A stretch of DNA of 64,000 nucleotides from a virus (lineage: Duplodnaviria > Caudoviricetes): IMG/VR virus record IMGVR_UViG_3300020047_016550, positions 1 through 64,000 of that record; one strand, 5' to 3'. Each line of letters opens with the position of its first letter. Within the stretch, counting starts at the first letter, position 1. The position numbers were made by a program, and so were the translations under genes. The notes beneath the pieces were generated by a model that had not been told where the DNA came from, did no database searches, and saw nothing but the letters and a program-made list of their open reading frames with translations. Below, piece by piece: positions 616 to 56,200 of the stretch.

Positions 616-2820
616 TTACTGCGGTGCACTCATTTGCTGTTGTTGTTTTTGGGCCTGGATTTTATCTGATTCAGTTATCATTTCAGCCAAAACTTTACTC
701 ATGTCCGTTTTTCCTTTTGCCTCACCTTTTATAATCTCAATAACCATTTCGTGAAGCTGCTTGTCTTCCTGTAATTCTTTGGCCAATCTTTCGGCACGCT
801 GTTCTGAAGTTTCTTGCATTTGGGCTTCGGCCTGCATTTTTTTTGCTTCAAGTTCCCTGATTTTTTCCCATCCTTCTTCAAGGATACTTTTTGCTTCAGC
901 CAAAGTTTCGCTCATTTCAAATTTCATGGCATCAACCGGCCTCATTTCTCCGCCGTTTATTGCCTGGGGAAAATAACTTCTCATGATTTCACGGATGTAT
1001 CTTTCTTTTCCCGGATCATGAAGATAAGTCCAGTAAGAATTGTAAGGAATGTTTTTTATGGAATTCATGTATGCAATCCCTTCCACTCCTATCAGATTTA
1101 TAAAAAAATCGGGGTCATTGGCTATTGCTACTTTTCCGTATTCAATTAACCGGCCCAAAACATTCTCCGTGAATTTGTCAAAAAAATAAGTCCTTGCAAA
1201 AGTTATTGAACGGGAAGCCTGTATTGCATTTGTACCGGCCGTTGCAGTTTGTGAAGCTTTGGGCATTCCTTCCCTGTTTTCATTTATTCCGGTAACACGG
1301 TCTCCGATACGATCTATCGCGTCAATAATATTTATGCATTGTTGTACCGTAGTTGACGCCGAAAGGTCAATTTCGTTCATTCCCAATTTTTGGGTATTTG
1401 TCATGTCAGCTCCGTATTCATTTCCTTCGGCAGCTGAATTTACTTCTACTATACCATGGTTGATTGCATCGTACAAAACACCTTTCATTGTGCCCCCTTT
1501 TTTCATGTAGGCACGGTCAAATGTGGTAATTTTCCCTTTTGCTTTTTTAATTTCCCGTGTAATCATACCGATGCATACATCGTATAATTCGGAAAGGCCT
1601 TCAAGAAGTCCGTATAAAGAAACACTTCCGCCGGCCGTTCGGTTAAACAAAAGACCCGTATATGAATATGTGGCATCCGCCGGCGATTCAAAACTGCCCA
1701 TTACATACTTTTTTCGCTCCATGTTGGTATACACGGTTTCTCCGATTCGCGTTGCTGTATAAATGAACGTTTTGTATCTTCTGCCTACATTGTATTTTTG
1801 CTTTTTGACATTGTTGGCATGTGTTTCCCATTCATCTTCAAAATCCATGGGATTTGAATAAAAAGGTTTTGTGTGGGTTTTTCCGTAATTGTCAACCGAT
1901 ATTTTGTAATAAAGAGGGGATTCGGCTTTAAATTCTATGTCGGTTACCCAAAACAACATTCCCCTGGTATTGTCGTATTCATAAAAATTAAGGCCGTTGT
2001 ATTGGTTATTGGGAGCTGTTGTTCCCCGAATTGATTTTAATTCCTGAATCTGGCTTGAGGTTAAATCATAAGCAGATAATATTTCTTCAAGGGTCATTTG
2101 TTTTCTGGCTCCTATCACCGGAGTCCTTTCAAGAAAAGGATCATCATCCAGTTCCACAAATATTGAATTCCTTATGTCAATACTTTTGTATTGGGGTATT
2201 TTTGTGCTTTCATTGTAAACAACCTGGCCGAATGTTTCATCGGCCAGAAGAAGATGTTTATAATCCCTGAACAATTTTGATTTTACGTTTCCTTTTTCAA
2301 TGAGTCCGTTTAAAACAAGCTGCATTACGTTTTCATGCTGCAACCGGTCTCTCATTTTATATTCCTGGCTTGTCGGGTCCTCATTTGGAACGGGAAGATT
2401 TTCAAACATGTCAATCCCTGAAATGCTTTTGACTTTATCACGGGCTTCTCTTCCGTGATATAAACCGGTCATTAATGCCAGCTTGTTAAACTTTTCAATT
2501 TTGGCCGAAGGATTTACTGAATAAACAACTCCGTTTAAAGGCTTTTCAAGCATTTCCCCTAAAAGAAGATACAGCTTTGCCGCTGCATAATTGTTGTTTT
2601 TTACGATATGTAAATGCTGGCGGTTTCCAAGTTTATTCATTGAATCGTAATCCTGCGTCACATATCCCGCAAAACGATTCATGTAACGGTCTATTTTCTG
2701 CACTTCAAGAAGTCTTTTATAAGAATTCATTTCGGCAACCGTTATAAATTGCTTGAACCACTCTTTATCATTTTTAAACTTTTCTTGTTCAGTGTTTAAC
2801 TGGTCCGGGAAATAGCTCAT
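616..2820 (-). CDS. Portal protein (crAss-like)
   Basis: 734 aa directly after terminase. Recalled crAss portal features: IxTFDRAY, AINHGIVEVNS, IDxIGDRVTGINENREG, C-terminal coiled coil. Confidence 0.85.
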   Translation of the reverse strand: MSYFPDQLNTEQEKFKNDKEWFKQFITVAEMNSYKRLLEVQKIDRYMNRFAGYVTQDYDSMNKLGNRQHLHIVKNNNYAAAKLYLLLGEMLEKPLNGVVYSVNPSAKIEKFNKLALMTGLYHGREARDKVKSISGIDMFENLPVPNEDPTSQEYKMRDRLQHENVMQLVLNGLIEKGNVKSKLFRDYKHLLLADETFGQVVYNESTKIPQYKSIDIRNSIFVELDDDPFLERTPVIGARKQMTLEEILSAYDLTSSQIQELKSIRGTTAPNNQYNGLNFYEYDNTRGMLFWVTDIEFKAESPLYYKISVDNYGKTHTKPFYSNPMDFEDEWETHANNVKKQKYNVGRRYKTFIYTATRIGETVYTNMERKKYVMGSFESPADATYSYTGLLFNRTAGGSVSLYGLLEGLSELYDVCIGMITREIKKAKGKITTFDRAYMKKGGTMKGVLYDAINHGIVEVNSAAEGNEYGADMTNTQKLGMNEIDLSASTTVQQCINIIDAIDRIGDRVTGINENREGMPKASQTATAGTNAIQASRSITFARTYFFDKFTENVLGRLIEYGKVAIANDPDFFINLIGVEGIAYMNSIKNIPYNSYWTYLHDPGKERYIREIMRSYFPQAINGGEMRPVDAMKFEMSETLAEAKSILEEGWEKIRELEAKKMQAEAQMQETSEQRAERLAKELQEDKQLHEMVIEIIKGEAKGKTDMSKVLAEMITESDKIQAQKQQQQMSAPQ

Positions 2821-2847: not shown

Positions 2848-4944
2848 TTAATCAAATGAACTGAATGTCGTTTCGTGTGTGTCGGAATAGTTTTCTTCTT
2901 TTCCTTCAAAATTTTTAATTTCCGAATATCCTTCCGAAGTATGGCTGTATTCCTGAAAACTGGAAATCATAGTTTCTTCTTCTTTCTTTTTTTCAGTTGC
3001 GCGCTCGGGCTGCAATTTTATTTCACCGTCCATAACAAGGGCCAGGCCCAGTGCATCTACTTCATCCCAGTCATTGTCCGTTGTTACTTCGTCATAATTG
3101 GCCAGCCCGTTTATTACATGCGGGAAAACACATTCGTCAACGTAATCATCGGTATAAGACTGTATAAGTGATATTACCTGTTTTTTTGATTCCGGGGAAG
3201 TAGTAAACTTCATTCCGTATTCATGAGTCTGTTTACTGTTGGCGCTTTCATATTTTCTCGGTCTTTTTGCAAGCATTCCGACAAGGCCTATTTTTTTTAG
3301 GTAATCAACTATCCTTGAAGAACCGGCATCTATCATCACTTTTCTTTGAAGGCCGTATAAAACCATTCCTTTGGCACATAGTTCAAAAAACAGCTCTTTT
3401 CTTTTTGGCCGGCACCTGATTAATGCAACCGGGACTTTTTTACCTATAAGACTGTTTCCCCTGGGCCCGTAAACATTGTAGGCGTTTCTTCTCAAAATCA
3501 ACATTGATCCCAAAGATTTTGATGTGGCCGAAAGGTCTTGGTCATACCCGTCAAGACCGGCTACGTCCAAATTTTTAAACTGCGGTTCCGGGCCGGCAAA
3601 AATCATGATATATTCATCTTCGTCCGGATAATCAGCCAAATCAAATTCAATCATTTTTACTTTTAAAGGATTCAGTTTGTTACCTGATTTGTCGGTTTCC
3701 CATTCAAGTCTGTATGTTTTGTAAGGAAGCTCGGTAAGAGAACTTAAATATAAATCCTGTTCACTTATTTTTATTGAATTAAAATTATTTGCATTTAAAT
3801 TCAAAAAAGCCTCTTTTTCATTTGTGGCCCAGTTTTGTAGAAAGTCAAAGTATTTTTTTAACGATTTACCCCTTTTAAGTTTTAATTTTTTGCTTTCTAT
3901 ACTTTCAAGAGAAGCTTTTATGTCTTCACAACCGGTCAGCTGTTCGTCTGAAAGATTTAATTCTTCTTTGAGTTTTTTAAGGTTTGTGCATTTACTGTCG
4001 TTCCGTTCTCCGTTATCCGATCTTGAACCCCAGTAATATTTATTATTCAGCCTTTGGGAAAAAATTGCACACTTTATAAGATTAAAGTCTTCTGCAGCTT
4101 CCCACATTTCCATAAAACCTTTGGAGCCTCCTTTTATGTTTCCTCCGGTTCCATAAACATACGGAGTACCGATCATTTCATCTCCCATTTTAAAAGAGTC
4201 TTCCGTAGCTCCAAATCCTTCAATAAGTAAACCGTTTTCTCCGGACTCTTCAAATATTGCCGCATCAAGAAAAGTTCCTTTTAAAACGTTTGGATCGCTG
4301 TTCATCGTACGTAATTTTACCGTACTGAATGAACCGTCCCTCTTAAATCCCTGGTCCGTTTTTATTTCATATCCCACTACAATTTCAGGTGGCGTTCCTG
4401 AAAGATAATTCAAACGTAATTCCGGATACCGGTTAAGTTCGGCCGATGTTAATTTTGAACCGAAATCCAGAACATATTTTTCAAGACCTGCCGCAACCGC
4501 CGCCTGATATCCCATGAAATTAAAACGTAAGCCGTAATCTATTTCCATGTTTACGACTTTTTCAGACATTCCCCGGCGACGTGATTTAAGGCCTATGATT
4601 CCTTTTTTCTTTGCTTTTGCTTCTTCAATAAGCTGGCTGAATTCATAATCCACGTCAACAAATTCGGGAAGGTGTTTACCTCTTTTTACGGTAGTAATTA
4701 AACAGTGGTTCAGGTAATAATAATAACGGCCGTTTATAATGAATCCGTTTCCGGCGTCATAACCGTTTATGCATCTGTCAACTTCACGGCTCCAGAATTC
4801 TTCCCATAAAGCAGTTCCCACACACGAAGGATTTTTTATTGAATCCGCAAAAAAAGGAATCCCGTATTTTTTTACGGGCTGCGGATCAAAACCTTTAGGT
4901 TTGATTAACGGTTCATATTTTAAAAATCTTACATCAGAAATCAT
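2848..4944 (-). CDS. terL: Terminase large subunit (crAss-like)
   Basis: INGRYYYYLN adenine-binding region, Walker A LKSRRRGMS, Walker B FEESGE, YGTGG motif, RNase H-like AGLDGYDQD and DEVDALG. No intein or intron seen. Confidence 0.93.
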   Translation of the reverse strand: MISDVRFLKYEPLIKPKGFDPQPVKKYGIPFFADSIKNPSCVGTALWEEFWSREVDRCINGYDAGNGFIINGRYYYYLNHCLITTVKRGKHLPEFVDVDYEFSQLIEEAKAKKKGIIGLKSRRRGMSEKVVNMEIDYGLRFNFMGYQAAVAAGLEKYVLDFGSKLTSAELNRYPELRLNYLSGTPPEIVVGYEIKTDQGFKRDGSFSTVKLRTMNSDPNVLKGTFLDAAIFEESGENGLLIEGFGATEDSFKMGDEMIGTPYVYGTGGNIKGGSKGFMEMWEAAEDFNLIKCAIFSQRLNNKYYWGSRSDNGERNDSKCTNLKKLKEELNLSDEQLTGCEDIKASLESIESKKLKLKRGKSLKKYFDFLQNWATNEKEAFLNLNANNFNSIKISEQDLYLSSLTELPYKTYRLEWETDKSGNKLNPLKVKMIEFDLADYPDEDEYIMIFAGPEPQFKNLDVAGLDGYDQDLSATSKSLGSMLILRRNAYNVYGPRGNSLIGKKVPVALIRCRPKRKELFFELCAKGMVLYGLQRKVMIDAGSSRIVDYLKKIGLVGMLAKRPRKYESANSKQTHEYGMKFTTSPESKKQVISLIQSYTDDYVDECVFPHVINGLANYDEVTTDNDWDEVDALGLALVMDGEIKLQPERATEKKKEEETMISSFQEYSHTSEGYSEIKNFEGKEENYSDTHETTFSSFD

Positions 4945-5515
4945 CGGCGTATTTTTTAGTTTCAGTCTGCTGTTCTTTCATTTCGTTTTCAAGCTTTTTA
5001 AGTCTTTCCTGTTCTTCGCGCTTTTTGTTTCTGTTTATTTTCTCGAGAAAAGAAAGTTTTCTGTCGCCTTTAAGTTCAATTTCGTCTTCCGTTTTTTTGA
5101 TTTTTGACTCCATTTCCTCAATCCTTTTCTGCAAGGCTGATATAGCGCTGTCAATCGCTTTTATGGAAACGTGTGAAGTTTCATCCATTAACTGTTCTGT
5201 TAATAGCAAAATCTTCTTTTTGTATGAGTTAAGTATTTCATAATCAACATCATACTGCAAATAAGAATATTCTTCTTTGGCTTTTAGGATTAACGGGCTT
5301 ATTTCAATTTCCGTTTCTCCGAACCATTTTTTCCATGACTTTATTTTTTTGGTTTCTTCATCTATGTATTGCCAGAAAGATCCATGGTAATCTACCCAGT
5401 CAACAAGAAATCCCAATTCTTTTGAATTGAGTTTTTTGATGTGCTCACTAAGCTGGATTATTTCGGGATGTAAGGAAACTCCCGTATTTTTATTGACTCT
5501 GAATAGTGTAAGCAT
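4934..5515 (-). CDS. Hypothetical coiled-coil protein, candidate terminase small subunit
   Basis: 193 aa overlapping the terL start, helical C-terminus. Assignment is positional only. Confidence 0.45.
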   Translation of the reverse strand: MLTLFRVNKNTGVSLHPEIIQLSEHIKKLNSKELGFLVDWVDYHGSFWQYIDEETKKIKSWKKWFGETEIEISPLILKAKEEYSYLQYDVDYEILNSYKKKILLLTEQLMDETSHVSIKAIDSAISALQKRIEEMESKIKKTEDEIELKGDRKLSFLEKINRNKKREEQERLKKLENEMKEQQTETKKYADDF

Positions 5516-5563
5516 ACGTAATGTTTAAAAAAGAAACCCGCACATGCGGGTTTCAAATATACT

Positions 5564-5920
5564 TTAGTTTTCCTCAACTTGCTGCGCGCCCCAGTCATTT
5601 TCTGTCAAATCCATCTGGTTTGGCATCCATCCGATCATAACTGAATCGTCGGCCGCTTTTAGGCAAAAATGCCCTCTTAAACGGATAGGCACGTCTTTTG
5701 CCTTGATTTTTTCGTTTTCCGTAAAAGCAAAATTTTTAAGCACCCCGGCCCGGAACGCCGGAGATATTGTTTCTTTTGCGTCAACAATGTCCTGGGCGCT
5801 TACGATTACTTCTCCCTGATAAAAAACGTACATTCTTTTTCCGTTCCATCCTTTGCGAAAAATTATAAATTTTCCTGTTTTTGCAAGTTCAGAAGCCTGC
5901 CCGAAAGTTAATCCCTCCAT
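5564..5920 (-). CDS. tad2: DUF2829 / Tad2-like immune-signal sponge
   Basis: LTFGQASELAK...RKGWNGKRMYVF...GWMPNQMDLTENDW matches the family pattern FGxALExxK..RKGWNGK...GWxxSQxDxLAxDW. Start moved to MEGLTF at 5920, overlapping the upstream stop. Confidence 0.8.
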   Translation of the reverse strand: MEGLTFGQASELAKTGKFIIFRKGWNGKRMYVFYQGEVIVSAQDIVDAKETISPAFRAGVLKNFAFTENEKIKAKDVPIRLRGHFCLKAADDSVMIGWMPNQMDLTENDWGAQQVEEN

Positions 5921-6153
5921 GTCATTGCTTTTATTGCCCACATCTGGGCGGTTTGTAATTCGGTAATTGTAATGGAACATAAACGTTTTTGTTCCGGAGA
6001 TTCCGTTACGTTCCGTAAGTTGTGCTGTTCGTCAATCAAATCCGCAAAGCGTTTTTTTGTCTGGTGAATGGCATCATTGTTACCGGGATTGAATGTGATC
6101 CCTACTGCTTTTTCGCCGAATGTCAATTCGCGCGTTTCTAATTCTTCTGGCAT
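5908..6153 (-). CDS. Acb2/Tad1-like helical-hairpin protein, putative nucleotide-signal sponge
   Basis: GITFNPGNNDAIHQTKKRFADLID...RLCSITITELQTAQMWAIKA resembles the recalled FNPxG..IKxxxAxLID..R..AxTxLExAxMWAxKA family. Confidence 0.6.
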   Translation of the reverse strand: MPEELETRELTFGEKAVGITFNPGNNDAIHQTKKRFADLIDEQHNLRNVTESPEQKRLCSITITELQTAQMWAIKAMTWRD

Positions 6154-6206
6154 ATTAAATTGTTTTGGGTTTTACTAAGCCGCCCATGGCTGTTATTGAA
6201 AAAATT

Positions 6207-7037
6207 TTAAACCGAAAGAAGTTTTTCAAAATCACTTTTCAGATAAGGAATGTGATACGGAACAACGGCTTTGTTTTTCAAATCTACATAATAAAGTATC
6301 AACCTTCTGATTATGCAGTCATATTCCGTTTCGAGAATATACGCATATCCGGAAACCTGCAGGCCGTAATGATAAAAATTGCAATCTTCAAAATGGGATA
6401 AAGGCGGAAGCATTTTCAGTTTGTATCTGGAATATGTTTCAATTCCCCTACGGATATTTGTTTTATAATCCGTAATGTCAACAATTCTTTTTCCTTTTGA
6501 TTTCCCGACTTCAAAAATTTTATCCGATGTTCCGCATATACCGTGCTTAAATGAAGCGATTACCGCTTCCGGATACAGTCTTTTTGCGTCGGTATGGAAA
6601 GAAAGAACCTGTTTCATCATTTCTACGTTTTCTTCCTGGGAAGATTCAATTGCTTCTCCTTTTGCATGGGATTCTGCCGCATTATGAAAATTGGTTCCCT
6701 GGCTTGAACTGTAATCGCTTATCTGTTTCCAGTCTTTCTTTTTTTTATCAGCAGCAATCTGCATCAGTTCTTTTGAATAATATTTCATCCCGCTTTCACG
6801 GAGCATTTTACCTCCTGAAGCTTTTGACATCATTTCCGTATCAAACTTGTTTTTGAATTTTCCCAGAAAAGAACTCATGCTTTCGAATTCCCGTCCTTTC
6901 TCGTCAAAATATTTATGGCCCGGTTCATAAAGCCTTACGCCTCCCGAAAACGGCTGTAAGACATTTACGATTCCCGCGGGATGAAAATCATTCTTACTTA
7001 CATTCTTTGAGCTGGATATAATGTTCATTTTTGTCAA
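6207..7037 (-). CDS. PD-(D/E)XK (RecB/lambda-exo-like) exonuclease
   Basis: GTNFHNAAE, GICGTSDKI, DITDYKTN and YGLQVSGY motifs. Confidence 0.85.
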   Translation of the reverse strand: MTKMNIISSSKNVSKNDFHPAGIVNVLQPFSGGVRLYEPGHKYFDEKGREFESMSSFLGKFKNKFDTEMMSKASGGKMLRESGMKYYSKELMQIAADKKKKDWKQISDYSSSQGTNFHNAAESHAKGEAIESSQEENVEMMKQVLSFHTDAKRLYPEAVIASFKHGICGTSDKIFEVGKSKGKRIVDITDYKTNIRRGIETYSRYKLKMLPPLSHFEDCNFYHYGLQVSGYAYILETEYDCIIRRLILYYVDLKNKAVVPYHIPYLKSDFEKLLSV

Positions 7038-7413
7038 TGTTGTATTTTACGGTAACATCAAGAATTATTCCTCTTTTTTTACTGAAAAGAAGTTTGAATG
7101 CATCAAAAATGGTTATCGGAAATTTCACTTTTTTAATTACCGAATGTTCTTTATTGAAACTTCTTTCAACAGCCATCAGCGAAATGAATTTTTTGAGTAT
7201 CGGTTTACTCACCGAACTTATATTGTTTATCCGGCCATATTCGTCATGGAGTGACATTATCGCGTTAACACTCATTTTTTCAAGTCCGGATACCACTTCA
7301 AACAAAAATATTCTTTCCCTCGTGCTTAACTTCTCAAATGCCTGTAAAGGCGAACCGCCGCATGAAGCGACGGCACAATCCCAATACAGGTCAATAATTT
7401 CTACTGATTCCAT
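6994..7413 (-). CDS. Hypothetical protein
   Basis: 139-aa ORF tightly packed in the leftward operon. Confidence 0.6.
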   Translation of the reverse strand: MESVEIIDLYWDCAVASCGGSPLQAFEKLSTRERIFLFEVVSGLEKMSVNAIMSLHDEYGRINNISSVSKPILKKFISLMAVERSFNKEHSVIKKVKFPITIFDAFKLLFSKKRGIILDVTVKYNIDKNEHYIQLKECK

Positions 7414-8514: not shown

Positions 8515-8545
8515 CAAATATAATAATGTTGTACCGATATGCAAC
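8515..8545 (-). promoter_or_regulatory. Bacteroidota sigma-A-type promoter with 18-bp palindrome over the -33 box
   Basis: Minus strand reads GTTGCATATCGGTACAAC-attat-TATATTTG. -7 consensus is TAnnTTTG; spacer from GTTG is 19 nt. Confidence 0.65.
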
Positions 8546-9898: not shown

Positions 9899-9930
9899 CA
9901 AATATAAATAACGTTGTACAAATATGCAAC
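9899..9930 (-). promoter_or_regulatory. Leftward sigma-A-type promoter with the same palindrome
   Basis: Minus strand GTTGCATATTTGTACAAC-gttatt-TATATTTG, spacer 20 nt. Confidence 0.65.
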
Positions 9931-41297: not shown

Positions 41298-44200
41298 TTA
41301 TTTTTTTGATTCTTTTTCTTTTTTAAGTTCTTCGGCCCGAGCTTTTTTCTTGTCAAATGCTTCAAGAAATTCAAGATATTCTTCCTGATCAAGCATTTTC
41401 CGTGCCTTTGCTTTGGAAAGACTTTTGTAAAAAGTTTCTTTGTTGTAGTCATATTCCCCGAATATGGGGAAAAGTGTTTTCGTGTATATGTTTTCATATC
41501 CGGCCAACGCCGACAATGAACGGATTATCCTGGGCATTCCGGCCGAATGAAACTTCCCGTCTTTTTGGTATTCCGCGAACCATTCACCTTTTTCCCAGTC
41601 ATAAATATCTTTGGCTGGCTTTCTGAAATCTTCAAGTACCGACATGGGAGCAATATCAAAAACGGAAGTAACCGTTCCCACGGGATTTGTTATCGGAGCG
41701 TTCTGAACCATTATTGAATGGATATACGGCTTGATTGTTTTTGCGATTGCCACGTCTTTTGCCGAAAAAACTTCATCTTCATCATCATCATCGTCCGGAA
41801 GCATGGACTGAACCATCATGTACATGGAAATCAGCATTGCGGAAACAACCATGTGTGAAGCAAATGACCTGGTACGTTCACGCTGGAATACCAGAACTTT
41901 ATCTTTTAATTTACGGTATTCCTTCATTTCTGAAGCCGTTTTTCTTTTTTTATTCCGAAGTTCCCAAAAACGCTCCTGTTCACTTTCTGTTGCCACAACT
42001 GTTTTGTCGGCCCATACCGATTCACGGAAACTCTTTTTCTCTTCAAAAATATCCCGATAAATCCCGGCCATCCCTCCCGCGAATGGAGCCCTGAATATTC
42101 CCTGTTTGTAACGGTATCCGTTAACCACACGTAAATCACCGAACCAGTTTGTCCATACATCCGGCCCCCACCATTTCATTGACAGCATAATGCGTACCAT
42201 CACCATTTTTTTACCGGCGCGCTGTCCGGCTGTTCCGTAATCTCCGATCGCATCATTTATCTTATCCATGTACATTTTAAGCTGTTCAATCGAAGGAGCT
42301 TTATCATTAAGTGCGTTACCTTCGTTATCAAGGGCATTCCATTCTTCTTTCGAAAGTTTTCCGGCAAGCGCCATTGCTTTAAACGCATATTCTCCGACAG
42401 TCCACCCGAACATGGCCATTTTTGAAATAATACCGGCTTTGTCCGAAGTTTCGTAATTCATGGTACCGGAATAATTCTGTTCACCCAGTTTGGCCATTAT
42501 TGAATCTATTTTTCCACGGTTTCTTTTTACCGCGTCCATGGACCGGCTTAATTCTTCGGCAGATAATCCGGCCTGTATGCCAAACTCACGGTTAAGCCAT
42601 GTCTGTACCTGTTTTTTTTTCATGCCGGCAACCCTTGACATTCCGGTAGCGGTTTCAGCAACCGAACCGTCAACCATTAAAGAAAGTATTCCTCCAAAAA
42701 AGTTAACTGTAGCTCCTTTAAAATTAAACCACATTTTTGCCCGGAAAAAAAGACCTAACGTTTCCTGCATAATTGTCTGGCCCATTTTTTCAGTAAAGGT
42801 TTGTCCTTTTTTTACCTCTGGAGAACTTCCGGTAATGCTTTCTTTTCCCAAAACGTTTGCATCAACGTAGTTCCTGAAAAAAGAAGCAAGGTTGGTCATG
42901 TCTTTAGTTTCTCCGTATAATGTCGCTATGGTACCAAAAAATGCGTTTTCTTCATATTCTGAACGGGTAATCACGTCTTCCATGAATTCAATCATTGATT
43001 CATACAAATCAACTTTCACTTTTACACCTTTGGGAACTTTGTCATAATCAAAACGGCTTCCCAGCTGAAAATTTTCCTTCAGTGTAAAGCGCTGCTTTGA
43101 ACGGTCAAGATTATACATTTCTATTTTTCCGTTATGCACCCTTATGCTTTTTGCTCCTTTTTGGTCAAACGGGAAATCACGTTTTACGGAATGGGTAAGC
43201 TTGGCCATCTTTAATGCCGTAAGCAGATCGATAACCGTTTTTGTTCCAAACTTTGCATCTATCGGTCTTCCGCGTAAAAGTGCCATGGCTTCCTCATAAG
43301 TTTTTTCTTCCGAATTACCGCCGGTTCCGTCTTTAACGGTTTCCATGCTGTCAGGTAAGGGGAAAAGGTTATCCGAAAGCAGAACGGTTTCATTTCCCAT
43401 CAAAGAATTAACCGATCTTGTATTGTAAACCGCTTCGGTAAAACTCTTTGTTTCTTTGAATATTTCCCAGAAGCCTTTAAATTTTACCGGTATGAACGTC
43501 TTTTTTTGGCCCGGTATGTATCGGGCATATTTGGGATTATTGTAAAAAGCTTTTACGGTCAGATAAAAATCTTTTGCGGATCCGGCCGGGATTTTAGCTT
43601 CAGGCTTTAAAACCGGTCTTCCGTTCTTGTTTATTTCGTAAATTTTTGAATAAAATGATTCTTTGGCTTTTTCCCATTTGGATTTAAACAACGGACTGTT
43701 TTTGGCTATCATCAGTGAAGCTTTTCCGAACAGTAATTCCATTTCTTCTTCAACTCCTTTTTGAAAAACCATTCCCAGGTTGTCTTTCCATTTGTTTATT
43801 TCATCAATGGCTTTAAGCTCGTTATGGAGTATTTTATTTGCTAAAAAAGCAGCAGCCCCGTTATTTAGATAATTAACGTCGGAAAGTTTTTTGAAATACT
43901 TGTCAAGCTGGTTCATATCTTCATTTCCGACATGGCCGTGGAAATTCTTTTTGGCACCTTCCTCAATTGCTTTTTCAATGATTTTTGTTTCAAAAGCATT
44001 AATCATCTGGGTAAAACGGTCAGTGTTTGCCCAGGCATGAAGATTCATCGTTTTAAAGATATTCAGGTATTCTTCCAGTTCCTCATAAGTAAGGTCATCG
44101 GGAGTCTGGCCGTTATCGCGCATTTCTTTAAAAAGTGCGTTTACCGTTTTTAGCTCGCTTACATAGTTGTCATACTTGATTTTTATTGCCCGTAAACGGA

Positions 44201-45965
44201 GCCTTAGTTCAGCAATACGCAAATTGATTTTTTTGTGCTCATGCATCGGAGCCGTATCAAGCTCACTTTTTAATTTTTTGATTTCTTCCTTAATGGGATT
44301 TACTCCGCGCATGAAAGTTTTTTTCGGGCCTTCCATTCCTTCGCCCGTAATTTCGGCGAATTCATTAAAAGACATCGGACTTAAATCCATTTCATCAACC
44401 GCTTTTACTTCAGCGTTCGCTTCTGCCCGTTTAAATTCTTTGATTATTTCAACCGTTTCATCGTAGAGCTCGTTTTCACCGGTAAAATCAACTTCCATTT
44501 CCGGAATTACTTTTTGGGCAAATCCGGTTCCGTCGTCAGTAATAAGAAAAGGTTTTATGTACATTCCTTCTATTGTTACCGGCATCCCCATTGCACTAAG
44601 TATTTTTTTGTAGATACTCAGCTGCATTCCGTGTTTTTCAAACTTGCTTGCTTTTTCGACATTGTTGAATTTACCTTTTTTCGTGTAAGTGGGATCAAGT
44701 TCTCCTTCAGTATCAATGATTGAAGTTTTTGAAAACTTGAAATCAAAAATTTTAACGGCAACACCACGGCCTTTTTTCTTTACCGCAATAAGGTCAACCC
44801 TCGAAACTATCTGCTCATTTACGTCAACCACACGCATTTCAGGTAAAAGAGTATATCCTTCGTTAACCAGATCCGAAACAATATTTTTCATTTCGTCAAA
44901 TATGGTTTTTCCGGCTTCGCGGCTTATTCCGGTAACGGCACTCATGTTCCATATTGAGTCAAAGTCCGTTTTTCCGGACATTACATCTTCAATATTTTTT
45001 ACAAGCTCTTCAATTATTTTATGGCCGTCAGTTCCCGCTTTCGTATTTTTTTCGGTCAGTTTTTCATTATCAAACTGGTCCGAGCCTTCAAAACTTGTGG
45101 AAGGGTTTACGGCCAGAATGTCGGAAGGGCTTTTTGTATGCACTTTTTTGCCGTTGGGCATGGTAATCACATACATTGAATTGGTTTTGTCGTATTCAAG
45201 CGTGGACGAAGACAATTCAATTTTATTTAAGAAATCGGCAACTTCCGCAGAAGCCGATAACGGCATGTATTTTATGACAGAATTTGAGCCCAGCGGCAAT
45301 GCAGCTTTCATTTTTGCATTTTCCCACATCCGGGAAGAAAGCATCCTGGCCACGTCTTTATGGTTTGCAATTCCTATGGCATTTTTTACCGAAGCCCAGA
45401 AATCTTTCATCAGGTCAAGAAACTTTTCAAGCTTCGTTCCTTCAAAGTCAAGTTTTGCACGGTCCGATCCGGCAAGCTGTAAAGCGATTACCGCACCTTC
45501 TTCAGCTCCCAGGGGATGATCTTCCATAAAATCTTTCAGCGCTTTTTTGGAAGGATGGTTTTCGGGAAGATAATCCCAGTAAAGGTGTGCATATTCATGC
45601 ATGAAAACATTCTGGACCGGAGCCGTTTCGTCTATGTAAACGGCATTGCCCAAAGTTGCACCTATTCTGTTTACATCAACCTGACGACCGGGGAAATGAC
45701 GGTCTGCAAATTCCTGAAATTTTTCAGGATCATTAAAGATTTCCACTCCTTTAAAAAGGCCTCCCAGTGTTTCGCGGACATGGTTTTCAAAAGCCATGTT
45801 CTTTGAATCTTTTTCTATTCCGTCATGAACGGCAATCCATGAAGCAGCTTCCGCAATGGAAGGAATATCATCGTTAAACGCTTTAAAAATCTGCATGGCC
45901 CGTACTTTTCCGTACTGCATTTCAAGCATTTTCCATTCAGGTAAATTTGTGTTAGGACATCCCAT
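41298..45965 (-). CDS. Giant ejection protein with zincin and PD-(D/E)XK nuclease domains
   Basis: MGCPN..PEWK start typical of crAss giants, HEYAH at about 45585-45599, GTDGH/RVDLI/IFDFK/QLSIY nuclease motifs. Confidence 0.75.
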   Translation of the reverse strand: MGCPNTNLPEWKMLEMQYGKVRAMQIFKAFNDDIPSIAEAASWIAVHDGIEKDSKNMAFENHVRETLGGLFKGVEIFNDPEKFQEFADRHFPGRQVDVNRIGATLGNAVYIDETAPVQNVFMHEYAHLYWDYLPENHPSKKALKDFMEDHPLGAEEGAVIALQLAGSDRAKLDFEGTKLEKFLDLMKDFWASVKNAIGIANHKDVARMLSSRMWENAKMKAALPLGSNSVIKYMPLSASAEVADFLNKIELSSSTLEYDKTNSMYVITMPNGKKVHTKSPSDILAVNPSTSFEGSDQFDNEKLTEKNTKAGTDGHKIIEELVKNIEDVMSGKTDFDSIWNMSAVTGISREAGKTIFDEMKNIVSDLVNEGYTLLPEMRVVDVNEQIVSRVDLIAVKKKGRGVAVKIFDFKFSKTSIIDTEGELDPTYTKKGKFNNVEKASKFEKHGMQLSIYKKILSAMGMPVTIEGMYIKPFLITDDGTGFAQKVIPEMEVDFTGENELYDETVEIIKEFKRAEANAEVKAVDEMDLSPMSFNEFAEITGEGMEGPKKTFMRGVNPIKEEIKKLKSELDTAPMHEHKKINLRIAELRLRLRAIKIKYDNYVSELKTVNALFKEMRDNGQTPDDLTYEELEEYLNIFKTMNLHAWANTDRFTQMINAFETKIIEKAIEEGAKKNFHGHVGNEDMNQLDKYFKKLSDVNYLNNGAAAFLANKILHNELKAIDEINKWKDNLGMVFQKGVEEEMELLFGKASLMIAKNSPLFKSKWEKAKESFYSKIYEINKNGRPVLKPEAKIPAGSAKDFYLTVKAFYNNPKYARYIPGQKKTFIPVKFKGFWEIFKETKSFTEAVYNTRSVNSLMGNETVLLSDNLFPLPDSMETVKDGTGGNSEEKTYEEAMALLRGRPIDAKFGTKTVIDLLTALKMAKLTHSVKRDFPFDQKGAKSIRVHNGKIEMYNLDRSKQRFTLKENFQLGSRFDYDKVPKGVKVKVDLYESMIEFMEDVITRSEYEENAFFGTIATLYGETKDMTNLASFFRNYVDANVLGKESITGSSPEVKKGQTFTEKMGQTIMQETLGLFFRAKMWFNFKGATVNFFGGILSLMVDGSVAETATGMSRVAGMKKKQVQTWLNREFGIQAGLSAEELSRSMDAVKRNRGKIDSIMAKLGEQNYSGTMNYETSDKAGIISKMAMFGWTVGEYAFKAMALAGKLSKEEWNALDNEGNALNDKAPSIEQLKMYMDKINDAIGDYGTAGQRAGKKMVMVRIMLSMKWWGPDVWTNWFGDLRVVNGYRYKQGIFRAPFAGGMAGIYRDIFEEKKSFRESVWADKTVVATESEQERFWELRNKKRKTASEMKEYRKLKDKVLVFQRERTRSFASHMVVSAMLISMYMMVQSMLPDDDDDEDEVFSAKDVAIAKTIKPYIHSIMVQNAPITNPVGTVTSVFDIAPMSVLEDFRKPAKDIYDWEKGEWFAEYQKDGKFHSAGMPRIIRSLSALAGYENIYTKTLFPIFGEYDYNKETFYKSLSKAKARKMLDQEEYLEFLEAFDKKKARAEELKKEKESKK

Positions 45966-45966
45966 A

Positions 45967-48900
45967 TTACATACAATCCATTAAATTTTTTAACTCCTGG
46001 CCGTATTGTCCGGCCGTATCAAATTTAAGCGAAGATAATTTGATTTGCTCAGCTGCCGTTTTAATTTTTTCGGGCCCGTATTCTTTGGCCAGCTCATTTT
46101 CCATCAAAACAGAATTTTCTTCATTAAAATCAAGCGAATTGAATGATTCGGGTATGCTGTAATTTTTTTTACTATTTGACTGATTTAAAGTTTCTTCATA
46201 AACATCTTTTATTGCCTGCATGGCTTTTTCTGCTTTTTCATCACCCACATACTCTTTTCTTGGTTGCCATTTTCCTTCAATCTGAACATTATAGTTTTCA
46301 ATATCTCTACTGCCTATTCCTGCAAAGTTTTTAGTTAGTGTTGGTGTTTCTGTAGGTTCAAATATTCCTATATCTGTTTTATTAACTACTTTATATTCAA
46401 TTTGCCAAGCTTCATTTAATCTTGGTTTAACTTTAGAATTAAAATAATCTACACTCCACCCTTCTAATTTACTCCATTGTTCAGCATTTTTACCACTACC
46501 TACTAATTTATGTAAGGGTTTTGTAACTTCGACTAATACTTTTTCTCCATTCTTACCTTCCCATTCTATAATATCTCCTTCTTTTAATTTTTTCCAATAG
46601 TCTATATGTCCATCAGATTCATATCTTGTAGTTGCAGTTCTTTCACCTTGCTTAATAGCTTCTATTGTAGAAATTGATTTAACATCTGACCTTTTATTAT
46701 CATTATAATTAAAAGTCATTTTACCTTTAGCTGAAATAGGTTTTTCTTTTGTTTTTTGTTCAAAGCTATACCACTGTTCAGTGTTTATATCCCAAACATA
46801 AACAGGTTTATTTAACTTAATACCTAATTGCACAGCAGTATTTGTACCTCCTTTAACACCATTATCATCACTATTTAATTTAGCAATAGCATAGACAGCA
46901 TCAGCATTATAAACTTGGTAGTAGTTTCTGATCTGAAGATTCTTCTTTATTGTATCTGTATACTTAGTAAGATACTCTGGTCCAAGAAGATCATTTATTT
47001 CAGCTTCAGCTTTATCAAGTTGTTCTTGAGTTAGAATAGTAGCACCTTGAATTTGTTTTGAAATTAATCCTGTTTTAGTAGTATTAAGCTCTGTAACTAA
47101 TCCAAAGTTATCGAACAGCTCTTGTTGTAACCACGTTGCAAATCTTGTTGGTAATTTTGCTTTCTCGGTAGCAAATCCTGGAGGAAATACTAGTTTGGAA
47201 TATCCACTATTGTTTATCCTGGATATCAATTCAGTATTTAATCTTGTAAACTCTTTAAAATCTGAATCTGTATCTGACCATTGACCACCAGCAACCTGAG
47301 TTTTCTTGGTGATTATAGCTAATGCATTTGGATTCCTGTTTCCATTTCTATCTGTCCTGATAATAGCTTGTGTCTGAGATACATTCTTATCAGTATCAAG
47401 CATTTCAGCATTCTCAGTAAAAATGAATCCTGTATCAGGATTATTTGGAGCAGTATCTTTTGTGTAATTAACTTTGGTAATCTGAACCCTATCTCTTAGT
47501 TGCTTAGAAAGATTTGCATTTCCGGCATCTTTATAGTGTTTATGATTAGTAACACCATATTCTCTACCAATTAAATCCCAATAAGTATCTCCCCCATAAG
47601 ATTCTCCTGAATGGTTTACAAAATCTTTCATTAAATTCGTTTTCTCTTTATTAAAATCAAATTCTTTGATTGTTTTCGCTTCACCACGTATCGCCAGCGG
47701 CTTAGAATTTGCTTTGTCCAGATAAAATACTGTCCACTCTTCACTTTCCGCATTTTCTTTGGCCCTCACAAAACGGCTCTGGCCTTCTTTAAGCTTTTTG
47801 AATGCGGAATCTCCTTTATAGTCACTTTCGTCAACTTTGCTTATCATATCAGCCATTCCGGGATTATAACGTATCACGTTTGCTATCCACGTAAGTTCTT
47901 TTTTATAGCTCTCATTTTTTTTGTAGGCATTGACAACCGCTTCTTTTCTTTTACCGAATTCAATCCGCGTCTGATCATCAATTATGGAAAAATAACCTTT
48001 TGCTTGTACGGACTCCGACATTCCGTTGTTTAAAACCTGGTTTGCCAGTAAAATCATTTTTTCTTCAAAAGGAAGCCGGCCGAATGCTTCTCTTACTGAA
48101 TTTTCATAGTTTATGTCACCCACCCGTTTTTTATAATCGGAACTCAATGTTACCGAATCGGAAGTTTTTCCGATATCAATGCTTAATGCTTCTTTTAAAA
48201 TTCCTGACTGTTTTTGCACAATTGCTATGGCCTGCTTTTGTACAGTTTCCGCATCAAAGTCAATAACGGCTGATTTGTCTATGATGTCGTAAATGGTTTC
48301 ATAAGTTGATTTGATAAATCTTGAAGGCATGGCTTGAAGTATATTCCATCCGTTAAAAGAAAAAAACGGATCTATGGCCATTGCATTTCTTTGCATTAAT
48401 GAATAACCCATTTTGTTTCTTTCAAGAATCGGACTTGTTTCGAATCCCGGCCAGTCAAATTTTTTCTGGAGTTTTACCATGGACTCCCGTATTTTCAAAA
48501 GCTCCCAGGGCTGAAACGTAAAACTTTTGGTCATTTTGATAATCGGATTTAATACAAATTGGATATCCGATGAAACATTCATAAGTTTTGAAAGATGAAC
48601 CAAAGCCATTAAACGGTCAATCGGTTTATCTGAATTAACATCGTATTGAGTAAGCTCAAACTTGTAAACATTGAAATTTCCGTCATAATTGTATGAGTCA
48701 TTAAGCTCTTTGTTTTTTCTTAATAAATCGTCAATTTCACCGTCAATGATATCTTTCAATTCTTCATTTGAAAGCATGCTTTGTCTTTTGTTGAGCTTTT
48801 CATAGATTTCAGTAAAGAACGGAGATTGCATATAACGGATGACTTCTTCGTTTGAACTTCCCGACATTCTCATTACCGAAGCCAGGGTAATGGTATCCGG

Positions 48901-51900
48901 TCCCATACGCAGTTCATCCATGCCTTGTTCTTTTGCATTGTCTGTCGCGTGGTTAAGTTTGTTTGCCAGCGCAAAAATAACGTCGTTGAGTTTTTTTGAA
49001 ATTACTCCGTTTACTTTTTCCAGGTTTAAAAAGTTTCCGGAAGTAGGAGTGACTTTTCCTTTTAAATATTTTAAAACAGGAAAATTGAATTTGTGTTTTA
49101 TGCCCTGTGAAAGAATATAAGTAAAAGCGGCATTGTCGTTTGCCTGAATGGATATTCCCGTTTTACCGTTGGAATTTGCATCCCATGAAGCAGTCATATC
49201 AACAAGACTTAACTGGCTTGGTTTTTCTTTGTTTGACGCACCCCGTTCGTTTTGTGCAATCTCAATATCTTTTTGCGTGTCAATGGGAGTAGTAAGATAT
49301 TCGTGGTTTCTGGGTTTTCCGTTTAAAAGCGTTTCGTATTCGGATTTCATTGCTCCGATTATTTTATTGCTTAACGCTTTTTTCTTTTTGTCTTCAAGCC
49401 GGCGTTTTTCTTTTTTCATTTCAACGGCCCGTTCATCTGAAACTTTAACGGATTCAGAATTTAAAAAACGGTCAATTTTATCTAAAATATCCTGATCTCC
49501 TTGTGTAAACGTAACAAGTTTTCCTTCTTTTGTACGGTATTCACCCATTACATGCCGCTGGTCTCCGTCATTGTCGGAACCGGACATTTTTTGTGTTCCG
49601 GGATCCACTATCATCATGTTTTCCATGTCGCCCGTCGTAAATCCGGCAATTTCAACAAGTGAAACCGAATGAAGCGCGGAAGTCGGGATTCTTTCAATCA
49701 ATACCTTGTCTCCTTCAACACGAAATTTTCCGTTTTCTTCAAAAATAGGATTTGTTCGGAATTCTCCCCTGTAGTTTTGGGCTTCTTCCAACGTAGAGAA
49801 TGTTTCACCGGCAATGTATCTGTTTGCAAATTCAGCGGGCATGATTACTTCAGGAAAAAGCCAGTGTTCTTTTCCTTCAATGTCTTTTACCGCTTTTTGG
49901 TTTTTACCTCCGTAAGTACGGAGTTTTATTCCCAATGCAGGAACTTCGGTAAGAATGTTTTTGTTTACTTTGGTATCAATCGCTTTTTTCTTTATTTCGG
50001 AACCTATGAGGGTATAAATTGTTTTTAATGCATCACGGTCAAACATCCAGTTATATCCCGGAATTTTCATTTTCTCGATAACCGGATTATAATCACCTTC
50101 TTTTTGTCTGTTGATTACACGGTCTTTTGCATTTTTTCCTTCTTTTAAAAGTTCTTCCTGTAACCGTTCGGTTTCAATACGTGCAATTTCATTTAATGAA
50201 GATACAATTTCCGGGCCGCTGTCCGTAGGTAAAAAATATGATATGCCCTGTGTGGGCATTTTACCTTCGGTTTCTTCCGTTGACTGTCTTTGGTCTTGCT
50301 GGACATAATAAAATTCATTATTCAGAATTTCTGTTTTAACCGATTCCGGATTTGAATCATTGTCAATTAAAAATGAAGCATCAGCCCATCCGTTTTTTTT
50401 CTTTAATGCTTCGAAAAATGCATTTTTTTGTTTTTCAATACGTTTTTCATTCAGTTTTCCTTCTTTGCTTCTTTTGGCTCCCGTCGTAAATGAAATCTGA
50501 TCAATTTCTTCGGCATCCATTAAATCAAGAATGTTGAGAAGAGTGTAATCAGGCATACCTCTTTCTTCATTAAAATTTGCAGCAAATTCAGCAAATTCAC
50601 GGCTTATAAGAACGGTATTTGTTTTAATATAGGTATGGGCACCCGTAGCTAAATCCATTTCATTATAAATCGCTTTTATTGATCCGCCGAAATCAAAAGT
50701 GTTTCCAAACGATTTGTTTATTTTTGAATTCTGTACTGAATTGATAATCGTGATTCCGTCAGCCAGCTCCGCTTTCATCGGTAAACCCAGGCTTTCAAAA
50801 AATGAAGAGTAAATCTCCGAATCAATTTCAAAATCCGGAATAATAAGCGCTTTCTGTGTTTTACCCATTCCCCCTTCTATTTCCGTATCGGGATTTACCC
50901 CGGAAGCCCTCATTTCGCGTTTTACTTTGTCGATAAAACCTTTGGAGTAATTTTCAGGATTTCCGTAATAAAAATGATCCGTAAATATTTTGTTCACGGC
51001 AAAAGAATAAGCAAACTGTAATGCAAGGTCATTGGCGGTAATTCCGTTTACCGTAAGTTTATTTAAACCTATTTTGCTGCTTACCGTGTTGAGCATTTTC
51101 AAATAAGTATATGAATCCTCCAAAAGTTTTTCTTCGGTGATTTCATTGGCTATTTTATTTATTTCGGGATTTTTGCTTTTCTGTAAATCCGAAAGTATTT
51201 TTTTAGATTCTTCTATTCCGTATTTTTTAACCGGAACATAAATCTGTTTTCCCTTATCGGACATTACCTCGACAAGCTGGCCCGTTTTTCCTTTTCCGAA
51301 TAAGTTCTGGAAATCATTTCCAAAAAACATTATTAAATGATTCAACATGATGTCGGAACCTTTCTGCTGGTCCGCTTTCATGTTTCTGTTACCCTGGATT
51401 AAAGCCCCGTCAAACAAAATCATTGTTCCTTCAGGGTTTCCGTTTTGAAGATAATCATTCCTCATTACGGTTCCGTTTTCCAGCTCATAATCAAAACGCC
51501 TGTTTTCTTTTATTTCATCGGTTTTGATTTTGTGGGTAAGCTTGGATATCGTTGAATTGTATTCTCCGGTAGTTTTTAAGTCTTTGTTTACGTCCTGGTA
51601 TGAAGAAGCCAGCTGGTCCGGTTTCGGATCTAAATTCAGTCTCGCAATGTTGTCAATCTGTGGACTGATTACTTTTCCCGTAGTTGCATTTACCGTTTGT
51701 TTTGTCAGAGAATCACGGACTTTTTTTGCCGACAATACGGGCTCGTCTATTTTAATTTTGTCATATATGTTGTAGTAAATATTAGTTCTGGGCATTATAA
51801 ACGGAGCGTCAATTGCATATTGCATGAGATAAAAATGTGCAAGATTTTCAAATCCTTTGTAAGTAGGCTTTTTGCCTGTTTCAATTGACATTGAGGATTT

Positions 51901-53241: not shown

Positions 53242-56200
53242 GGATTTCTTTTGTTGTCAATATTAGCAATTATTTCCTGTTTTTTCCTGGCTATTTCCTT
53301 TTTTTCGGTTTTGGCCTGTTCAATCATTCTTTCAAAACGTATGTCAATTTTTTCTTCTTTGGTAAGTGTAGGATCCGTTTCGGTTTCTATCACAGAACCC
53401 GTTTGCGGATTTTTGGTTTTGGTCTGGAGTCTTCCGTTTTCGGTAATCTTTCTTGAACCTAAACCTTCAGAAATATTGCTTACCAATTTTCCGGCCGGAT
53501 CACGTACTTCAATTTTATCTCCATAAGGTGTGCCGTCTTTTCTTTTTGCTTCGTCAAAACGGTTCCATTCGTTTTTTGGAACATAGTTCAAAGTCACCGG
53601 TAATGATTCTCCGGGTTTTAAGTCTTTGTATTTTTTTGGCAGTTTATAGGAAACCATTTGTAGTTCACGGCCCGAATTGTCAACTACCGCAATCCGCGTT
53701 TCTCCGTTTTTTTGTGCCAGGGCCTTTACTTCCATTTTATACTGGCGTTTTCCTGTTTTCTGAAAAACATCGGCCAGCTTTTTTACGGTAGTTTTAAAAC
53801 GGTTTGCATGGCTTAGTGCGTTATGTTTTTCAATGTCCGTTTTTCCTTTTATTTTTTGTTTTGATTCAGGTAATGATTCTTTTTTTCCAAGATTTTGGTA
53901 ATAATCATTTACGGCATCAATATCTAATCCGAATTTTTCAGAAAAATTTATTCTTAAGTCTTCAATTTCTTTTGTTAAATCAGTTCTGTTATTTTCTTCT
54001 TCAATATTTTTTTTCGTAATTCCTGAAGGAAATTCATTTACTGTTTCAATAATTAAATCAATGACATCTTGTTCATCATATCCTGAATGGCCCTCACTTC
54101 TTAATTCTTCCAATAGGTAATCCGAAACAAAAGTATCTATTTTGACTCCTTTTTCTGAAAACCATTTTTTTTCAGATACATCGGTTACGTTTTCTTTTAT
54201 TTCTTTTAATGGTTTAAATTTAGTTTTGAGGATATTTGACATAATTATTGATTTCAAAGATCTTGAACCGTTTTTTTGTGCATTTTTTGAAATTTCATAA
54301 TTATAATCTTCAATAAATTCAATGACTTGTTTTTTTGTTTTTGGAGTTAAAACATTGTTCCACCATACATTTATCATGTTTGGTATTTTAGAAGCTTTTT
54401 TTGAATGGCTTATGGTATGTTTTGATGATTTTTTTTCTGTGCCTTGATTATCCGTGAATATAATCTTTTCATTTTCAAAATCTATTTGAGCTTTTGTTGA
54501 AGAAGTTAATTTGTATCCTTGATTTTGTTTTGATTTAGATGATTTTGTATTTACAGTTTCCGTATTTGTTTTTTGAGCCGGTGTGCTTGTTTTGGTAGAT
54601 GGTGTACTAACGGCTTCGGCAGCTGGCAATTTCGTCCCAATTTCTTTTTTCCCACTTAATATTTCAACAACATCATTTTTAAATTTAGATAATCCATCTC
54701 TGTTTATTACATTACTATCAGTTTGCTTGTAATCAGCCGATTTTAATTCAAAAATAGCCTGTTCCATTTCAGGAGTAATATTATCCGTAAGTTCAAATAT
54801 TACAGAAGCACCTCCTTCTCTCCCGAAAACATCACTTCCAGACATCGCAACTTGAATGTATTGTTTTTTATTTTTACTTTCAAAAACTCGATATTTTGCA
54901 CCCGTAGTTCTATAATGTTTTTTATCCGTAGTCTTTTCACCTTCAAAATTAACGTAAGTAAAGTCCGCAGATGTACGAGGGTCGGTATCAAACGTCCTCA
55001 TTTCATTTTCACCCCCTATTGTGTTTTCAATTTGTGTAAGTCCAGATAATGTAGAGTTCGATATTACTGCATTTTCATTAATTATAGAACCTTGATTTTG
55101 TTTTTCAACCGTTGCCTCACCCACTACCGTTTCAGCAGGCGAAACAACAGGGGATATTTCACCCCCGTTGTCAACCGTAGTTTGCTCAACTACGGGGGGC
55201 ACAACTTCAGGTGAAACAGTTTCAGCCGAAGATTCTTTTTTCTGTTTTTTGGATACGGGAACAACCATATATTCACCCGGTGAAATTAAAGTTCCGTTAC
55301 TCCATACTTCATTTTTTATTACCCGCGTTACAGAACCTTCCGGCAAATCAGAAGTTGCATCAGGTATAATTTTTGATTCTTTTGAAATTTCATTTGAACT
55401 TTTATATGCCGGTATTTCATACTCAGTACCGGCCAGGTCTTCAATTTCCGCTTCATATATTTCTTTTTCCGCACCCTCAAGCTCAGAAGGGTTGACATTG
55501 GCCAGCCATTTAACTTTGCTTTCCATGTTCACTTTTTCATTTATTGCCATGGCCAAAGCATCCTGGGAATTTTTCACGGTTTCTTTTTCTTTGTCGGCTA
55601 AAACAAAAGGATCGGTCTCAGGAATTTCTGCTTCCGTTTTTTCAGTTTCGGGCTCTGCTTTTTTTGCGGTTACTTTTAATGAAGGTTTTTTATTTGCGTT
55701 TTTGTCCCTGTTTGCGATTTCATTCCCGGCAATGGCCAGAAGTTCTTTTTGATGTTTTAAATGCTCCTGGGCCCCATGTAAACCGTTTCCGCTTATGGTT
55801 TCTTCACCGTTTACGATATCCCATTTAAACATATCATAGTCAGGAAGATTTTTCTCGCTTTCGGTTTTAATCAAAAGTTCTAAATCGGCAATATTTTTTT
55901 TGGTTGTCTCAATAAGGTTTTCAACTTTGTCAATGGTAACTTCCGGCATTGTTTTTTTTACCATTGCTCTTTCTTTCTGCAAATGTCCGGATATGGCCAC
56001 ACTTTCAATTTCCATCAGTTTATCCCGTTCTTCCTGATTCATGGCCATTCTTTTTTCACGGGTTTCTTCAACGGCCTGTTGGGTGCCTGTTTTTTTCCCG
56101 TCAGGATCTGATGAACCCATGGCCATACCCATTAAAAAAGTTCCGGCCAGAAAGAATGTGGCATCACTTACATTTCCAAACTGCTGTTTAATCTGGCCCA

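Follow-up and report, generated by a model that had tools for sequence, protein, structure and literature searches.

Two overlapping genes of the uncultured phage in record IMGVR_UViG_3300020047_016550 probably constitute a co-expressed, two-gene counter-defense cassette, in which an Acb2-family sponge and a long-insert Tad2 sponge are placed together in a leftward unit that ends before the packaging genes. The two products are most likely to be co-expressed signal sponges, one for the cyclic oligonucleotides of CBASS and the other for an ADPR-derived TIR signal; their exact ligands are predicted, with several of the specificity residues differing. The source virus is a complete record of 73,391 bp with direct terminal repeats, of which bases 1-64000 (hereafter the window) were analyzed. 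No match for the locus (blastn) or for the large terminase TerL (tblastn) was found in the isolate phages of INPHARED, from which near-identical records may be missing. The phage or its 90-99% relatives are present in wastewater metagenomes. Three giant ORFs in succession (1555, 2424 and 1681 aa; Table 1), together with the PHROG families of the terminase and portal, are reminiscent of the virion proteins of crAss-like or N4-like phages.

Gene overlap and transcription unit

The stop codon of the Acb2-like ORF at 5908 and the ATG of the Tad2-like ORF at 5920 had been predicted to overlap by 13 nt, and direct reading of the sequence bears this out. The junction reads ACATGGAGGGATTAA, and the ATG of gene 2 lies within the codons for Thr-Trp in gene 1. 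Starting from another ATG, at 5980, would give a Tad2 of 138 aa, which is 20 residues longer. However, the start is likely to be at 5920, since 40 Tad2 relatives start 1-3 residues ahead of an L-[TNS]-F-G motif (L-x-F-G), as does the protein that begins at 5920. The Tad2 frame is open for 37 codons on the 5' side of its ATG, within the Acb2 gene. The start is not preceded by a Shine-Dalgarno-like core, which is consistent with the scarcity of such cores genome-wide: just 3 of the 43 starts have one (background 3.9%), and the upstream regions are 44% A. The host thus probably has translation initiation of the Bacteroidota type, without the use of Shine-Dalgarno sequences. Because the starts lack these cores, any coupling would run by termination-reinitiation and not by a Shine-Dalgarno site inside gene 1, and the 13-nt overlap would probably let ribosomes that end gene 1 restart on gene 2.

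Table 1. Features of the window and of the related loci (nt positions; those of other records are identified by accession)
Feature	Coordinates	Strand	Basis or remarks
Gene 1, Acb2-family, 81 aa	5908..6153	minus	ATG 6153, TAA 5910-5908
Gene 2, long-insert Tad2 (DUF2829), HgmTad2/AcrIIA7-like, 118 aa	5564..5920	minus	ATG 5920-5918, TAA 5566-5564
Overlap of gene 1 stop and gene 2 start, 13 nt, out of frame	5908..5920	minus	Direct sequence reading
Insertion-domain-coding part of Tad2 gene, residues about 34-81	5678..5821	minus	Alignments to HgmTad2 and AF2 elements
Open Tad2 frame 5' of the ATG	5921-6031	minus
Intrinsic terminator, GAAACCCGC-AUGU-GCGGGUUUC then U6	about 5527..5554	minus	Terminator scan
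TAtaTTTG box, Bacteroidota -7 type	5554..5561	minus	Motif scan; overlaps terminator foot
193-aa ORF	5515..4934	minus	No family match
Large terminase TerL	2848..4944	minus	phrog_6681, E 6.7e-53
Portal gene, past TerL		same strand	phrog_6547
139-aa ORF	6994-7413	minus	No Pfam or PHROG match
WDGH-domain protein, 224 aa	8585-9259	minus	PF25311, E 1e-28
24-nt element GTTGCATATnnGTACAACnTTATT, two copies	9907-9930 and 8522-8545	minus	Exactly two copies
Three giant ORFs	41298-58274	minus
Acb2-Tad2 pair L163, IMGVR_UViG_3300027806_000142	1450-1973		46% GC; Acb2 of the same FNP clade; 4-nt ATGA overlap
Acb2-Tad2 pair L162, IMGVR_UViG_3300034072_002251	1435-2210		High-GC provirus; PaMx33-like Acb2 clade; Tad2 ATG 2 nt past stop
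JBD67 acb2 (L165), NC_042135	22985-23311 (L165 286-612)

The prediction that the pair lies 5' of the terminase also holds, as TerL is encoded downstream on the same strand with the 193-aa ORF in between. The position of this ORF and its 11-nt overlap with TerL suggest that it encodes the small terminase. An intrinsic terminator (5554..5533), with a 9-bp stem (6 G-C pairs) that is capped by a 4-nt loop and followed by a U6 tract, is located 9 nt past the Tad2 stop and ahead of the 193-aa ORF and TerL; on RNA folding, the 9-bp stem is kept in both the MFE and centroid structures. Because this terminator follows the Tad2 stop, we place the sponge pair as the last cistrons of a leftward, exonuclease-bearing unit and not as the leader of the packaging operon. 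On the 5' side of the pair this unit comprises an exonuclease (phrog_298), two unknown ORFs, the WDGH-domain protein and a 129-aa ORF. Next comes a divergent region at about 10 kb, and on its far side replication genes (helicases) occupy the plus strand as far as 36 kb.

The 24-nt element is present in two copies where none would be expected by chance, and a TAtaTTTG -7 box lies directly 3' of each copy. The two copies probably act as closely similar promoters or operator sites at the head of the leftward genes that end with the sponge pair. Both sponge genes would be transcribed together at the 3' end of this unit, with the transcript ending at the intrinsic terminator. The separate TAtaTTTG box at the foot of the terminator is a weak call that possibly starts the packaging unit. 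A protein-atlas feature search with the 139-aa ORF pointed weakly (0.91) to Cdc6-type winged-helix domains, and this ORF may encode a DNA-binding protein. A short Logan contig from an RNA library (a wastewater run) covers 5991-6177 at about 91% identity, and is uninformative on transcription, strand or ends.

The Acb2-family protein and the long-insert Tad2

The 81-aa product of gene 1 contains the Pfam domain PF24729 (Acb2_Tad1_hairpin; 37.4 bits against a cut-off of 27, E 2.9e-9), as do all but one of its 47 metagenomic homologues (46-91% identity). The alignment of this clade displays two conserved blocks, an N-terminal [FY]-G-[EQ]-K-A-V-G...F-N-P and a C-terminal I-T-E-L-Q-T-A-Q-M-W-A-V-K-A. 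The AF2 model (pLDDT 92.9) contains helices at residues 12-16, 27-49 and 53-78, that is, a short N-terminal helix and a long antiparallel two-helix hairpin, which is the published topology of the Acb2 protomer. Owing to the simplicity of this fold, searches with the model are non-specific: Foldseek returned no match at E <= 0.001, and re-ranking with VIA-align placed T4 Vs.4 (7uq2_B; Z 6.4, rmsd 2.1, 60 residues, 20% identity) amid unrelated generic hairpins. Sequence comparisons with the solved proteins gave a marginal E of 0.062 for the clade profile against Vs.4 and a probability of 33% in hhalign for the clade against JBD67 Acb2. The proposed Acb2/Tad1-like identity is supported by the PF24729 score, by the Acb2 topology and by 49% identity over 73 residues to a tested homologue, no. 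41 (see below). With respect to the proposed check by HMM and structure, the domain hit lies above its cut-off and the structural match to Vs.4 is non-specific.

Arg57 and Thr64 are at least 90% conserved in the clade. In alignments of low confidence they correspond to Asp61 and Thr68 of Vs.4 and to Arg82 and Thr89 of JBD67 Acb2, equivalent to Arg67 and Thr74 of PaMx33, in the cA3 pocket; weak as they are, the two alignments concur on this placement, and the literature agrees with it. Arg67 and Thr74 hold cA3 in PaMx33 Acb2, and T4 Vs.4 lacks the arginine, which is the reason for the published D61R mutant of Vs.4. The N-terminal part of the 81-aa protein does not align with the solved Acb2 proteins and so no equivalents of PaMx33 Tyr11 and Lys26, of the dinucleotide pocket, were mapped. 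Candidates for this pocket are Phe12 (Phe or Tyr throughout the clade), Lys15 and Lys33, all of which are conserved. By analogy with Acb2, the protein would assemble as a hexamer and sequester CBASS cyclic trinucleotides through the conserved Arg57/Thr64 pocket, and it would probably also take dinucleotides of the 3'3'-cGAMP type.

The clade is present in the Acb2 homologue list and tree of Hadary et al. (2025; Table S1; 10.1101/2025.08.24.671296), whose screen took in four of its members and one looser relative. Homologue no. 41 blocked E. albertii CBASS signaling with 3'3'-cGAMP and was without effect on type I or II Thoeris or on cUA CBASS, no. 36 was positive in a plaque assay with the E. 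albertii system, and cUA CBASS was blocked by no. 15 (10.1101/2025.08.24.671296). Nothing was blocked in the same screen by no. 24 or by no. 2, which has only the FNP motif in common with the clade (10.1101/2025.08.24.671296).

The 118-aa product of gene 2 matches PF11195 (Tad2-like) with 53.3 bits (cut-off 25, E 4.2e-14), which is below the score of its relatives (53 versus about 80 bits). The best sequence match in the PDB is pdAcrIIA7 (9kzr, E 2.4e-18), followed by HgmTad2/AcrIIA7 (8kbi, 7e-17) and then SptTad2. The AF2 model (pLDDT 93.2) was matched by Foldseek to 8kbi_A with an E of 2.4e-9 (TM 0.75/0.84, rmsd 2.3) and to 8wjd (SptTad2) with 3.3e-9; 8kbk, 9eib and 8smf were also among the matches, which after HgmTad2 take in SptTad2, ModTad2 and SPO1 Tad2, and no unrelated structure was matched below an E of 0.28. 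Thus, the assignment of this ORF to Tad2 (DUF2829) is upheld by both the HMM score and the fold match to HgmTad2 and SptTad2. Its sequence is divergent. Among 1.84 billion representatives, a full HMMER scan returned none above 46% identity, and at a level of 50% identity the protein stands as a singleton; a word-index search for closer relatives returned the query alone and a metagenome scan returned none.

The insertion domain, located between β2 and β5, is modeled with confidence and superposes on 8kbi. At 48 residues versus 41 in HgmTad2, the extended insert of the original prediction is real; its AF2 elements are two strands (residues 38-41 and 78-81) enclosing three helices (42-47, 54-63 and 71-74). 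An N-terminal head is a separate feature of pdAcrIIA7, whose annotated sequence exceeds that of an otherwise near-identical metagenomic AcrIIA7 by 48 N-terminal residues; the head is visible in the crystal and is therefore real in pdAcrIIA7. No helical head is evident in the 118-aa protein.

The published contacts of HgmTad2 were mapped onto the 118-aa protein through alignments and were compared with 40 Tad2 relatives. In HgmTad2, gcADPR is contacted by Trp21, Asn22, Gly23, Trp87 and Asp93 (10.1101/2023.11.15.567273), which correspond here to Trp25, Asn26, Gly27, Trp98 and Asp104; the two tryptophans, the asparagine and the aspartate are invariant in the 40 relatives and the glycine is present in 39. 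The lid residues Ser90 and Thr92 of HgmTad2, which read adenine and ribose, are replaced by Asn101 and Met103. The serine is found in 37/40 relatives and the threonine in 24/40, and the change of Ser90 to asparagine is unique among them. An S90A/T92A/D93A triple mutant of HgmTad2 lost gcADPR binding (10.1101/2023.11.15.567273). The 118-aa protein would form a tetramer and would sequester an ADP-ribose-derived TIR/Thoeris signal in the pocket formed by Trp25, Asn26, Gly27, Trp98 and Asp104.

A second pocket, for cGG and cGAMP, is built by the insertion domain of HgmTad2 and SptTad2, and binding of both ligands by HgmTad2 is abolished by R31A/N85A (10.1101/2023.11.15.567273). Here, Arg31 and Asn85 correspond to Gln35 and Ile96, Phe70 to Leu81 (Phe in 17/40 relatives) and Ser47 to Thr51 (Ser in 15/40). 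The arginine and asparagine occur together in 14 of the 40 relatives, and the asparagine never occurs without the arginine. Because this guanine-reading pair is missing, the insertion pocket probably does not bind c-di-GMP or cGAMP in the HgmTad2 manner. The earlier suggestion that the insert could change the ligand range therefore stands in part: a link between insert and ligand is published for HgmTad2 and SptTad2, but the sequence argues against cGG binding in the HgmTad2 style and not for a wider range. Since the insert is among the longest in the family, the R/N pair is lost and the Ser-to-Asn change in the ADPR pocket is unique, it is conceivable, although we consider it unlikely, that the protein binds signals bound by no characterized long-insert Tad2; such a signal might be a cyclic mononucleotide held at the interface of the insert, as in MoTad2, or else another isomer of ADPR.

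Occurrence of the pair and alternative readings

Pairing of the two families was surveyed from both sides. Tad2 was found within +/-4 kb of the Acb2 relatives in none of the 80 closest viral loci (tblastn and HMM search) and, using Pfam, anywhere in none of 42 whole records that carry the closest Acb2 relatives. Among 80 viral records with Tad2 relatives, PF24729 was above the cut-off in two (about 2.5%), and each of the two has its Acb2 gene directly 5' of Tad2 on the same strand; both pairs were confirmed by Pfam (L163 and L162 in Table 1). By these counts the pair is not a conserved module among its relatives. The L163 and L162 contigs are unrelated and differ in Acb2 clade and GC content. 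The arrangement of Acb2 then Tad2 is thus rare, yet it recurs in a fixed order with members of different clades, and it has arisen more than once. The pairing as such is not described in the literature searched.

All three Acb2-paired Tad2 proteins (from this phage, L163 and L162) lack the R/N pair, which is a hint only, given that n = 3 and that 65% of the background lacks it. It would fit a division of labor, with Acb2 taking the cyclic oligonucleotides and the Tad2 insert freed to change. The Tad2 of L162 is extended at its N-terminus by about 80 residues that have no family assignment. Fusion of the two families was considered because pdAcrIIA7 carries a 48-residue two-helix head fused to Tad2, and was rejected: ten Tad2 relatives with N-terminal extensions of 60-85 residues all lack PF24729, four longer relatives of the 81-aa protein lack PF11195, and neither the 81-aa protein nor its profile matches 9kzr.

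The original prediction had assigned the pair to the unit leading to the packaging genes, timed against defenses triggered by late proteins, and this assignment is not supported, given the terminator that separates the pair from the 193-aa ORF and TerL. Membership of a late packaging transcript, directed against defenses that sense capsid, portal or terminase, would agree with the strand shared with the 193-aa ORF and TerL and with a distance of only 49 nt to the former, and terminators can leak. Moreover, the experimentally studied acb2 gene of Pseudomonas phage JBD67 sits between the genes for the major head protein and the head-tail adaptor, so that in other phages a late morphogenesis module can house an Acb2 gene. 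We nevertheless judge a late transcript to be improbable here, as the terminator directly past the Tad2 stop is strong, the possible -7 box beside it suggests that the packaging unit has a start of its own, and the genes on the 5' side of the pair are an exonuclease and small unknowns, none of which is structural.

The function of gene 2 could also be construed differently, as mainly anti-CRISPR activity of the AcrIIA7 type, with tracrRNA bound in the groove of the tetramer, in place of a signal-sponge role. AcrIIA7 uses the basic groove residues Lys58, Lys66, Lys71, Lys93 and Arg101 for tracrRNA binding (PMC13133391). Three of these five are kept (Lys14, Lys23 and Lys28 here, for Lys58, Lys66 and Lys71), pdAcrIIA7 is the best sequence match in the PDB and the protein is headless, as is the active metagenomic AcrIIA7. 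However, the three lysines are part of a core motif common to all Tad2 proteins, Lys93 and Arg101 are replaced by Glu50 and Ala58, inhibition of Cas9 by HgmTad2 was not reproduced in one laboratory (10.1101/2023.11.15.567273) and the host of the phage has no known type II-A CRISPR link, which together make an anti-CRISPR role highly improbable. It is possible, if unlikely, that the two genes are unrelated accessory cargo sharing an insertion slot, with the overlap reflecting compaction only and one product having perhaps drifted to a different ligand or to none. The rare co-occurrence (0/42 and 2/80), the isolation of the Tad2 (a singleton at 50% identity, with the nearest representative at 46% or less), its reduced PF11195 score and its unique replacement of Ser90 would all fit such a history. 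Against it, the other two-family records (2/122 examined) both have the two genes next to each other and closely joined, in this same order, despite their differing Acb2 clades and GC content, and the ADPR pocket retains its invariant core. We favor the co-expressed pair of sponges.

Comparison with known systems

Acb2, Tad2, dual-pocket Tad2, the diversification of both families and anti-signaling gene clusters have all been published, and no new kind of mechanism is described here. What the locus contributes is an Acb2 of the FGEKAVG/FNP clade and a divergent Tad2 with a long insert, both encoded by a novel phage whose host probably belongs to the Bacteroidota. In this Tad2 both pockets vary naturally, which makes it useful for mapping sponge specificity.

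The 81-aa protein shares with Acb2 (PaMx33/JBD67, T4 Vs.4 7uq2 and no. 41) its Pfam hairpin domain, size and helix-plus-hairpin topology, and the arginine and threonine of the cyclic-trinucleotide pocket of PaMx33/JBD67 Acb2 are conserved. It differs from the solved Acb2 structures in its marginal sequence similarity and in the extra conserved N-terminal motif. The 118-aa protein has the same fold, including the insertion domain, as HgmTad2/AcrIIA7 (8kbi-8kbm, 8wjc and 9kzr) and SptTad2 (8wjd), which are long-insert Tad2 sponges of Bacteroidota phages, and is stand-alone and headless like the metagenomic AcrIIA7. It shares only about 32-40% identity with proteins of the HgmTad2 type, has an insert that is seven residues longer and lacks an N-terminal head domain of the pdAcrIIA7 type.

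In phages, 17.8% of anti-defense systems lie within 1 kb of another and T4 has islands of them (AntiDefenseFinder; PMC11724313), and an anti-signaling hotspot is described in N4-like phages (bioRxiv 10.64898/2026.06.04.730250). The pair resembles these islands and the N4-like hotspot in that small inhibitors of different signaling defenses lie side by side near DNA-metabolism genes. Unlike them, it consists of only two genes, of the Acb2 and Tad2 families, that are joined by an overlap.
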